64,000 bases of DNA from Escherichia coli. Its GTDB lineage: Bacteria > Pseudomonadota > Gammaproteobacteria > Enterobacterales > Enterobacteriaceae. The stretch lies in the NCBI RefSeq assembly GCF_046105845.1, contig NZ_CP151004.1; one strand, given 5' to 3'. The position numbers were made by a program, and so were the translations under genes. Under the pieces are notes generated by a model. The model ran no database searches, had not been told where the DNA came from, and saw only the letters and a program-made list of their open reading frames with translations. Within the stretch, counting starts at the first letter, position 1, and each line of letters begins with the position of its first letter. Positions 418 to 61,498 of the stretch are shown here, piece by piece.

Positions 418-1528
418 ACCTGTCAGTCACCCAATATTCCACACTATGTGCTTCATCAGGTTGAGGAACTTCCAGCCTTGAGGCCATCCGCATCACGACC
501 GCTTCAGGAACTGCATACTCGCGTCTGGCATTTTGCTGCTTCCATTGCTCCCATGGCACTTCCAGATAAACGATTTTTACTCGTGCGCCGTAAGCCGTAA
601 ACAGACTGATGAGCTGGCTACGCAGCTGGCGGGTAATGTTCGTCGCATTCCAGATGAACGGCTTTTTCTGGCGTAAAAAAACGCGCGCCTCTTCTTTTGC
701 CTGTTGCACAATACGCCCGGTGGCGGTTTTGTCGTCCGGGCTGGCATTGATTCGCCGCCGCATATCATCAAGGCTGATAACGTCCATTCCCAGGCACAGT
801 TCACTGATATAGCGATCTTTGCCCATACCCGGTAAGCCACACAGCAAAATAACCTCAAAAGATTCAGCCTCCCAGGGAACAAAATCAGGAGAACTTTGCT
901 CATGAGTCAGGTAGTGCCAGCGTGCGGAATCAGACACGAACGGGCGCGCTTTTCCCCAGCATTGTTGCTCATGGCAAAACAGCTCGAACAGATCGATGCG
1001 TTCCAGCATTGATTGCTGGTCCGGGCTTTGGCGACCAAGCAGATCGGCACGAGCAAGCAAAGCGAGCAAACGCGTGTCGATGCGCATTGCAGCTGTGAGC
1101 AGCAAACGCTCCGGTTCCGGACGTTCCAGTAACCATAGCGGTAACCCATGCAGACGCACCAGCGCAACAATTTGCTCGCGTAGCACGAACGGCGTTGGGA
1201 TATCGCGCCATAAAATTTGTCGGGCCGTCAGTTCGCCCCGACGAGCATGGCCAGGCGACTGAATACGTCCGTTTTCCTGCACGGTAGTGCTGCGCTTTTC
1301 AACATCATGCAATAACGCCGCCGCCCATAAAACTTCCTGCTGTTGAGCGGGGAGTTGCTGGAATTCTGGCAGAGTAACGAGGGCGTTAAGTACCATTTCG
1401 GTATGCACGCCGACGTCGCCTTCACCATGATGCTCCGGGTCTTGTGGCGTGTGATGCATCTCCTCAACCCAACTGAAACGCTGGCGTAGCGCCGACCAGC
1501 GTTTATCGTCGGTAAGCTGCCAAATCAT
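416..1528 (-). CDS. HD-domain phosphoesterase / P-loop polynucleotide 5'-kinase fusion (HD-Pnk-like RNA/DNA end-healing enzyme), putative
   Basis: 370-aa ORF; N-terminal HD-domain signature (EHHGEG…VHT…LLHDVEK… further His/Asp), C-terminal P-loop GLPGMGKD (aa 231-238) followed by acidic [11 protein letters not shown]; start ATG overlaps upstream ORF stop (ATGA). Confidence 0.75.
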
Positions 1529-2232
1529 GATTGTTCTCCATAGGTGAACTCATGGGCCATCCGCGCCCGTTGCCAGTGGCGTTTCCAGTGTACGGTAGTT
1601 TTGACATGATTTTTGCGTACATACTTGAAGACGTTATGCGAAAAGTCAGCGACGGAAAACGCATCACGATTCCGGCTGACAATGCCTTCCAGCGTACAGG
1701 GTTGCCCGGTTTGTGTATCCCAGGGATCGAACGCGCCGCGCGCATTGGTCAGCGCCAGAAAATCACGTTGCCAGCTTTTTTCATCATTCCCCGGCTGCGG
1801 GCCGGAGATTTCGGGAACGCAGGGGAAATCAAACAGAGCGGCGTAAAACTGCACCTCTTCCCAGCTCAGCCACATATCCTGGCAGCGAACGGCAAACAGA
1901 TAAAAATCCTGCTCCAGGGCGCGATATTCAATCGAATGGACGGCATAAAGATTTTCACCAAACAACTCCAGATCGCCGAGATCGTTTTTCAGCAGTTGCC
2001 AGCGTTGGCGAATTTTATAGGTCCATGCCGACTGCGTAGGCGCGGCATGGGAACGGGCAAACACGCCGTAGCGGTTAAGGCAGTTATTTTCACCGTCGAG
2101 TTTTTCTGTGTGCACCAATTGCGTGATGGCCTGTAAATCCTGCCAGTAATCGGTGTTAATACGGTCATCGCTGGTGGTGCCAGGGGAGAAAGGATAATGC
2201 CAGGTTCTCCCGTATTTTCGTTGGGTATTCAT
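1525..2232 (-). CDS. Minimal ATP-dependent RNA ligase-like nucleotidyltransferase (Rnl family), putative
   Basis: 235-aa ORF; covalent nucleotidyltransferase motifs: motif I EKLDGEN (K44), motif III FGENLY, motif IV LEGIVSR, motif [11 protein letters not shown]; E. coli-like codon usage; weak SD (GGA) upstream of ATG. Confidence 0.75.
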
Positions 2233-43037: not shown

Positions 43038-43400
43038 TTGGTGGAGCTGGCGGGAGTTGAACCCGCGTCCGAAATTCCTACGTCCTCGGTACTACATGCT
43101 TAGTCAGTCTTTACATTCGCTTGCCAGCTGCGGACGGACACGCCACTAACAAACTAGCCTGATTAAGTTTTAACGCTTCAACCCCAGGCAGGGCTTCCAC
43201 GCGATCTCTTTTGGGTTTGACCTCTCTTGATCCCCGTCCTAAGAGCGGAGGCTAGGGAGAGAGGGCTCTAAGCAGGTTATTAAGCTGCTAAAGCGTAGTT
43301 TTCGTCGTTTGCGACTATTTTTTGCGGCTTTTTACGAGGCCAACCGCCCCTCGGCATGCACCTTGGGTTTCGCAAATCCCGTCGAATCCAGAATCAGCCC
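43038..43400 (-). ncRNA. ssrA: tmRNA (SsrA)
   Basis: Reverse complement reads GGGGCTGATTCTGGATTCGACGGGATTTGCGAAACCC…GGTTCAACTCCCGCCAGCTCCACCA, including tag-peptide coding region; boundaries within about 1 nt. Confidence 0.97.
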
Positions 43401-43615
43401 CAATGTGTAACGGTAAGTATACCAGATTCATGAGTGCCATGACCAGCCTCAATGGCGTTATCGTTAAAGATTTAGCACCCATGTAGCCTGATTTTTATTC
43501 GATTAAGCAATGGGATGGCAACATTTTCGTCGGATGTGATAGCCAATAAGATGTGCATTCGCGCCGCCGGAGAGGGAGGCGCGGTGAGGAACTGGTCAAT
43601 AATTGGAGTGCAGGT

Positions 43616-61261: not shown

Positions 61262-61347
61262 TTGTTATCAATAAAAAAGGCCCCCCGATTTGGGAGGCCT
61301 TATTGTTCGTCTTCGCATTCTGTTTCACACGACGAAACGCCTCCCAT
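61262..61347 (-). promoter_or_regulatory. pheA transcription attenuator (terminator hairpin plus T-run between pheL and pheA)
   Basis: Sense strand reads …AAGGCCTCCCAAATCGGGGGGCCTTTTTTATTG… immediately downstream of Phe-rich leader. Confidence 0.8.
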
Positions 61348-61395
61348 TCAGGGGAAGGTAAAAAAGAATGCGAAGAAAAACGGTGTGTGTTTCAT
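61348..61395 (-). CDS. pheL: pheA leader peptide PheL (MKHTPFFFAFFFTFP)
   Basis: Manual translation of minus strand: ATG AAA CAC ACA CCG TTT TTC TTC GCA TTC TTT TTT ACC TTC CCC TGA; 7 Phe in 15 codons. Confidence 0.9.
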   Translation of the reverse strand: MKHTPFFFAFFFTFP

Positions 61396-61498
61396 GTTTG
61401 TTTCCTTAAGTGACTTCAGTACAGTACCCGTACTGTTTTCACGCTGTCAACAAAAAACGCGCCCGAAGGCGCGTTGGCGATACACTCAATATAAAGGA

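Follow-up and report, generated by a model that had tools for sequence, protein, structure and literature searches.

The 64,000-nucleotide stretch of Escherichia coli DNA analyzed here (contig NZ_CP151004.1; hereafter the window) contains, between luxS and emrB, a minus-strand gene (positions 416–1528) for a 370-residue protein that joins an N-terminal HD phosphoesterase to a C-terminal P-loop kinase domain. Sequence, architecture, and gene context establish this protein as an HD-Pnk, and it is an uncharacterized E. coli member of this known family of end-healing enzymes. Its Walker A motif carries an aspartate (Asp238) directly after the invariant lysine, and an asparagine (Asn294) replaces the canonical Walker B aspartate. 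From the sequence comparisons described below, we consider it probable that these two residues represent a compensated swap and that the kinase stays active. A first-pass annotation of this DNA had flagged the aspartate; it had overlooked that the Walker B position is changed as well and that the protein is an HD-Pnk encoded beside a ligase gene.

The motif lies at positions 815–838 on the minus strand. Read as the reverse complement of the plus-strand sequence ATCTTTGCCCATACCCGGTAAGCC, it consists of the codons GGC TTA CCG GGT ATG GGC AAA GAT, which translate to G-L-P-G-M-G-K-D (residues 231–238; K237 codon AAA at 818–820, D238 codon GAT at 815–817). This re-translation bears out both the motif and the residue number D238 given in the first-pass annotation. 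A Pfam AAA_33 match spans residues 226–355 (E = 6.9e-33) and has the motif at its first positions. In an AlphaFold2 model of the protein (predicted local distance difference test, pLDDT, 97.3; predicted template modeling score, pTM, 0.94) the motif is placed between strand 225–230 and helix 237–244. Because it opens the AAA_33 domain and takes the standard strand/helix position in the model, we consider the motif a genuine P-loop and no chance match. Gly231, Gly236, and Lys237 are 97–98% conserved in the HD-Pnk family. The residue that departs from the canonical GxxxxGK[S/T] in the E. coli protein is the one that follows the lysine (K+1), Asp238.

Two other features of this loop are recorded here as side observations. 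In many enterobacterial HD-Pnks (from Citrobacter, Salmonella, Kosakonia, and Serratia; homologues P0013–P0052) the first Walker A glycine is an alanine (ALPGMGKD), which is a second departure from GxxxxGK in these proteins. The K+2 residue is arginine in the E. coli protein (GKDR), unlike in the Runella enzyme described below (GKDT); the family consensus and the polynucleotide kinase of C. thermocellum (CthPnk) also have threonine, which in CthPnk touches the α/β phosphates.

The assignment of both domains rests on several matches. The HD phosphoesterase core comprises residues 29–166 (1031–1444, minus strand), with the H74–D75 pair encoded at 1304–1309. The predicted metal ligands of this domain, His34, His42, His74–Asp75, His94, His127, and Asp162, are at least 95% conserved among 128 homologues, and His94 is invariant. 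The single-sequence Pfam HD match is below threshold (17.1 against a cut-off of 22 bits); a profile of the HD-Pnk family matches the HD regions of PDB entries 3wfo (class II A-adding/CCA enzymes) and 2pq7. The C-terminal half aligns by sequence with CthPnk, PSTK, and T4 Pnk, and Foldseek finds the same kinase fold in mammalian PNKP, CthPnk (TM 0.71), and T4 Pnk (TM 0.75; all template modeling (TM) values normalized to the target). The earlier description of this half as polynucleotide-kinase-like was therefore apt, since no PDB entries match it better, in sequence and in fold, than CthPnk, T4 Pnk, and mammalian PNKP. Sequence and profile searches of the PDB returned no liganded HD-Pnk structure.

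Alignment with CthPnk also identifies the residues expected to carry out phosphoryl transfer. The stretch D254-D-M-R257 (758–769, minus strand) holds the predicted general-base aspartate and the arginine predicted to orient it and bind the acceptor; these align with CthPnk Asp38 and Arg41 and are 96–97% conserved. Arg336 (521–523, minus strand) corresponds in the profile alignment to the lid residue Arg120, is 94% conserved, and is predicted to contact the γ-phosphate. Lys237 matches the P-loop residue Lys21 and Thr296 matches Thr80. In CthPnk, Asp38 is the general base, Arg41 orients this base and binds the acceptor, Thr80 anchors the first phosphodiester, and Arg120 reaches the γ-phosphate from the lid (PMC3902929). 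The E. coli protein therefore has the complete set of residues of a T4/Cth-type 5'-OH kinase (D-x-x-R, Thr, and lid Arg), and Lys237, Asp254, Arg257, Thr296, and Arg336 are each conserved in at least 90% of the family.

The first-pass annotation had called aspartate after the lysine unusual, and had named Ser/Thr as the usual Mg2+ ligand at this position. The second statement agrees with CthPnk, where Mg2+ is held by a single protein ligand, the essential Ser22 (PMC3902929). The first is correct for P-loop proteins at large, where [Ser/Thr]K+1 is said to be strictly or almost strictly conserved and the exceptions are mostly glycines in nucleoside monophosphate (NMP) kinases (PMC9599734). It is not correct within HD-Pnk, where aspartate is the normal state. 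The alignment that had been proposed as a check on conservation gave a positive answer: aspartate occupies K+1 in 429 of the 463 full-length homologues. In 151 sequences that represent 50%-identity clusters and are 35–56% identical to the query, the residue is Asp in 117, Ser in 22, Asn in 5, Thr in 3, and Glu in 2, and GKD is mostly kept in homologues down to 35% identity. Aspartate at K+1 thus characterizes an enzyme family that had been described before. A search of the literature for Asp-containing Walker A motifs found nothing useful. Torsin-type P-loops read GKN.

The second half of the swap is found on the strand I292-W-N294-A-T296-N (638–655, minus strand; N294 codon AAT at 647–649). 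Asn294 aligns with the Walker B aspartates of CthPnk (VV-D78-ATN) and PSTK (IV-D-DTN), and in the AlphaFold2 model it closes strand 291–294, which runs beside the P-loop strand. The canonical Walker B pattern hhhhD is accordingly replaced by P-F-I-W-N in the E. coli protein. The K+1 Ser/Thr of almost every P-loop NTPase serves as Mg2+ ligand #4 and is hydrogen-bonded to the Walker B aspartate (PMC9599734); in a PNK-fold domain, the Walker B aspartate has been predicted to form hydrogen bonds with the Walker A threonine and with waters (PMC13066744).

The two positions change together. The K+1/Walker B pairs in the 463 homologues are Asp/Asn in 426 (92%, the dominant state), Ser/Asp in 15, Thr/Asp in 3, Asn/Asn in 6, and Ser/Asn in 4. 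The pair Asp/Asp occurs in none of them, as compared to about 17 cases expected from the column frequencies if the columns were independent. By mutual information with average product correction, the pair 238–294 ranks fourth of 67,161 column pairs, and it leads those pairs that lie entirely within the kinase domain. For the 50%-identity representatives, the association has p = 2.5e-15 by a Fisher test that does not correct for phylogeny. Because Asp/Asn alternates with Ser/Asp while Asp/Asp is excluded, a compensated swap is the simplest explanation. The literature that we searched yielded no description of this Walker A/Walker B covariation.

A neighbor-joining tree built without columns 238 and 294 places the canonical members (18 sequences sampled) in approximately 11 separate places, and Fitch parsimony on this tree requires 19 changes per column. 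Most canonical members are nearer to Asp/Asn proteins than to another canonical one (P0208, 0.51 versus 0.44; P0270, 0.47 versus 0.37), and two Ser/Asn sequences are the nearest relatives of Ser/Asp sequences. These relationships are consistent with a path that leads from Ser/Asp through Ser/Asn and Asn/Asn to Asp/Asn, in either direction. Each step on this path is a single nucleotide change if the serine codon is AGY. The codons at hand are anecdotal, with too few sequences to judge: one Ser/Asn member uses AGC and one Ser/Asp member uses TCA. We tentatively propose that HD-Pnks contain a natural inverted Walker A/B pair that was exchanged with the canonical one, in both directions, on several occasions, by way of Ser/Asn and Asn/Asn and never of Asp/Asp; we find this history plausible, and still slightly doubtful.

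The closest reference system is the HD-Pnk of Runella slithyformis DSM 19594 (P0447; AEI48611.1/WP_013927922.1, found by cluster look-up). BLASTP aligns it to the E. coli protein with 52% identity (192/368 residues, one gap, E = 1e-139). The two proteins are of equal length and have the same two domains in collinear order. The Runella sequence reads GLPGTGKD-T and FVF-N-ATN, which is the same Asp/Asn state. On CP002859.1, its locus encodes Tpt1 and MTase-HIT, followed by a 151-nt spacer and a ligase gene that overlaps the HD-Pnk gene. PMC6097658 describes such a four-gene cluster for the purified bifunctional Runella HD-Pnk, and we took P0447 as the prototype because its accession and gene cluster match this description. 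According to the same source, which refers to Munir and Shuman (2017), this HD-Pnk is an end-healing enzyme with 5'-OH polynucleotide kinase activity. The kinase reportedly depends on Mg2+ and an NTP. The cassette in E. coli resembles the Runella locus in the overlapping RNA-ligase-family gene upstream of HD-Pnk. It differs in having no adjacent Tpt1 and MTase-HIT genes, and in being an accessory insertion between luxS and emrB. Runella zeae has the same gene cluster as R. slithyformis, and its HD-Pnk also carries GKD. A contig scan with RslTpt1 (PDB 7kw8, reached via E. coli KptA) had R. zeae as its best match, with 64% identity, and did not return R. slithyformis; the candidates P0357 and P0364 proved not to come from R. 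slithyformis.

A second point of comparison is DR_B0098, which we take to be the HD-Pnk of Deinococcus radiodurans from the title of Schmier and Shuman (2018). It also combines an HD domain with a P-loop kinase in an operon with a ligase-family gene, and aligns with the E. coli protein over 96% of the length with approximately 27% identity. Unlike the E. coli and Runella enzymes, it has the canonical pair (GSGKS-T and VW-D-ATT). Since the Runella enzyme is Asp/Asn and the Deinococcus enzyme is Ser/Asp, both pairs exist in studied members of one family, enzymes that are taken to be functional. The Deinococcus operon also differs in that it includes a TIGR02452 (PARG-like) gene. Furthermore, the gene for DR_B0098 is radiation-induced, resides on a megaplasmid, and is required for radiation resistance (PMC6300522).

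More distant kinases place the swap in context. CthPnk (PDB 4gp6/4gp7/4mde) and T4 Pnk (1ly1/1ltq) share with the E. coli protein the kinase fold (Foldseek TM 0.70–0.75), the P-loop lysine, the Asp-x-x-Arg general base, the threonine after the Walker B strand, and the lid arginine. In contrast to the E. coli protein, they have serine at K+1 (Ser22 in CthPnk) and aspartate at the Walker B position (Asp78 in CthPnk by alignment). Their phosphatase partner domains are also of other types, calcineurin-like in CthPnk and DxDxT in T4 Pnk, instead of HD. In several NMP kinase families the GK[ST] motif is broken at the same position by glycine, and these proteins are still active phosphotransferases; there, the Mg2+ ligand is a water instead of the side chain, and no hydrogen bond joins Walker A to Walker B (PMC9599734). 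HD-Pnks differ from these NMP kinases in having an acidic side chain at K+1 together with the replacement of the Walker B aspartate by asparagine.

From these comparisons we infer the following mechanism. The HD-Pnk would be translated from a two-gene operon together with a small ATP-dependent ligase-family protein. Its HD domain would remove 2',3'-cyclic, 2'-, or 3'-phosphates, and its P-loop domain would phosphorylate 5'-OH ends. In the kinase site, the usual hydrogen-bonded pair of Walker A Ser/Thr and Walker B Asp would be replaced by the reversed pair Asp238 and Asn294. The carboxylate of Asp238 may stand in for the Ser/Thr hydroxyl as the catalytic Mg2+ ligand, either directly or via water, and the amide of Asn294 would then form hydrogen bonds with Asp238 and a metal-bound water, with reversed polarity. 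A single carboxylate would thereby be retained at the metal site, shifted from Walker B to Walker A, and the kinase would stay active. Phosphoryl transfer would proceed as in CthPnk and T4 Pnk: Lys237 and Mg2+ would stabilize the transition state, Asp254 would act as the general base, Arg257 and Thr296 would hold the acceptor, and Arg336 would close the site from the lid.

The most obvious alternative, which the first-pass annotation had entertained, is that loss of the Mg2+-binding Ser/Thr has crippled the domain and left a pseudokinase or a regulatory nucleotide-binding module. The essential Ser22 of CthPnk (PMC3902929) speaks for this idea, as does the rule that K+1 substitutions usually kill P-loop enzymes (PMC9599734), and the E. 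coli protein lacks the Walker B aspartate as well. Against it stands the Runella prototype, which carries the identical Asp/Asn pair and is described in PMC6097658 as a 5'-OH polynucleotide kinase. Because the purified Runella kinase has the identical GKD, the idea that the aspartate marks a dead or regulatory domain is not supported. In addition, the five catalytic residues of the E. coli protein are all kept and strongly conserved, while dead PNK domains lose the catalytic aspartate instead: the dPNK domain of hnRNPUL1 has Asn at this position (PMC13066744), and the E. coli protein has kept Asp254, which is 96% conserved. An impaired domain is for these reasons very improbable, and, as judged from its retained residues, the E. 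coli kinase has most likely kept its activity. A trivial explanation, a sequencing or assembly error at the Asp codon, had been named in the first-pass annotation as a finding that would overturn its observation. Its probability is practically negligible: GKD stands in every full-length Escherichia allele that we recovered, among them the one that represents a cluster of 2,310 member sequences, the same GAT/GAC codon occurs at this position in the two Runella species and in metagenomic relatives, and two base changes separate GAT from any Ser or Thr codon.

Two further readings concern the meaning of the covariation. The association between 238 and 294 could be purely phylogenetic, reflecting two old subfamilies without physical or functional coupling; the canonical state is sampled by just 18 sequences, neither mutual information nor the Fisher test takes shared ancestry into account, and the tree is shallowly resolved. 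We consider this improbable, since the canonical members are dispersed and mostly nearer to Asp/Asn proteins (P0208 and P0270 among them), the Asp/Asp pair is missing where about 17 cases were expected, and the two positions are those of the classic hydrogen-bonded Walker A/B pair (PMC9599734). Alternatively, the swap may have functional consequences: direct coordination by the Asp238 carboxylate could alter metal affinity or selectivity, or curb futile NTP hydrolysis, so that the kinetics would differ from those of Ser/Asp enzymes. The dominance of Asp/Asn in the family suggests an advantage rather than drift, and replacement of Ser/Thr at K+1 in some kinases has been argued to stop wasteful ATP hydrolysis (PMC9599734). 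That the pairs have interconverted repeatedly, and that studied enzymes include both of them, suggests near-equivalence instead. We judge such a shift to be unlikely on balance, yet clearly less so than a purely phylogenetic association; it is compatible with the compensated swap and would extend it. Altered Mg2+ handling by Asp238 is possible in this sense.

Several points weigh against the compensated swap with an active kinase. The activity of the E. coli HD-Pnk is a prediction. The neighbor-joining tree is noisy at 35–45% identity and so gives a rough number of independent switches. Neither carboxylate is present in a few natural sequences (Ser/Asn and Asn/Asn), which implies either that a carboxylate is not absolutely required or that those proteins are impaired. 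Finally, the cassette is interrupted by frameshifts or stop codons in some E. coli lineages, and selection for it is accordingly not universal.

The putative sealing partner is encoded directly upstream of HD-Pnk by an RNA-ligase-family gene (1525–2232, minus strand; 235 residues; Pfam PF09414, E = 3.4e-28). Its stop codon overlaps the HD-Pnk start as ATGA (1525–1528). The same overlapping arrangement is found at the homologous loci L003, L083, L086, L087, and L093; at L090 the ligase gene is directly upstream of HD-Pnk without overlap. The nucleotidyltransferase motifs EK44LDGEN, FGE93NLYA, E182GIV, and K203YVRK are invariant among seven orthologues, including those from both Runella species. 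With 235 residues, this ligase appears minimal and to consist of the nucleotidyltransferase domain alone. Its AlphaFold2 model, computed from a seven-sequence alignment, is poor (pLDDT 57.4), and a PDB sequence search with the protein returned only spurious matches to hemocyanin repeats. PMC6097658 reports that the Runella ligase self-adenylylates and sealed none of the substrates tried. The Ser/Asn member P0303 (locus L092) has no ligase gene beside it; its neighbors encode a 759-residue protein without Pfam match and an RCC1/WD40-repeat protein. Because of this case, we describe the linkage to a ligase gene as frequent rather than universal.

The cassette is flanked by two hairpins. A G+C-rich hairpin with a T-run lies between the convergent luxS and HD-Pnk genes (384–417); it was read by inspection and was not listed by the automated scan. 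Directly after emrB, on the minus strand, follows a strong, terminator-like hairpin with a 9-bp stem and a T-run (2461–2482). Given this second hairpin, the ligase/HD-Pnk operon probably has its own promoter in 2233–2460, although a simple σ70 scan of this interval found none.

The window is a piece of Escherichia chromosome (luxS to emrB, emrA, and emrR), and its best match among complete genomes is 98.6% identical. The cassette fills approximately 2.1 kb between luxS and emrB (366–2489). In K-12 MG1655 the same two genes are separated by just 63 nt (L089, 4156–4218), and the cassette is an accessory insertion or deletion polymorphism. It is present in 998 of 5,426 complete E. coli genomes (approximately 18%), where its genes are annotated as "ATP-binding protein" and "RNA ligase family protein". 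Signs of decay are also evident. In the closest complete genome, that of E. coli VCSW7 (L001, 4226–4933), the ligase gene contains an internal stop and bears a pseudogene annotation. HD-Pnk alleles of 252 residues that are frameshifted directly before the P-loop are common (P0053 with 216 and P0057 with 3 member sequences), and proteins P0025–P0027 are also among the sequences tied to cassette decay. Full-length HD-Pnk relatives are chromosomal or located on megaplasmids. Among 50,697 phage records, one contains a full-length HD-Pnk (LR756500.1, 24519–25559; 34% identity, 94% coverage), and this record is a 462-kb uncultured jumbo phage. Neither HD-Pnk nor the ligase matches the PADLOC models of antiphage defense at E ≤ 0.01. 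Our literature searches found no paper on the E. coli cassette.

Elsewhere in the window, Rfam matches at the gathering threshold mark a tRNA (30778–30850, plus strand), the small RNA isrC (38848–38970, minus strand), IS009 (39946–40144, plus strand), the transfer-messenger RNA gene ssrA (43039–43401, minus strand), and a Phe leader (61271–61396, minus strand). Both IS009 and isrC are at most approximately 4 kb away from ssrA, and this arrangement might be that of a prophage or island.

For E. coli, these results mean that the gene pair between luxS and emrB can be named an HD-Pnk and ligase end-healing and sealing cassette, and that its HD-Pnk should not be taken for a degenerate ATPase in annotation. 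In the HD-Pnk family, the Mg2+-site carboxylate is found on Walker A or on Walker B, apparently never on both. If the inverted pair has not yet been described, it would be one of the rare cases in which an active enzyme departs from the "strictly conserved" [Ser/Thr]K+1–Asp(WB) module, and, if true, it would provide a natural experiment for proton-relay and Mg2+-coordination models of P-loop catalysis.

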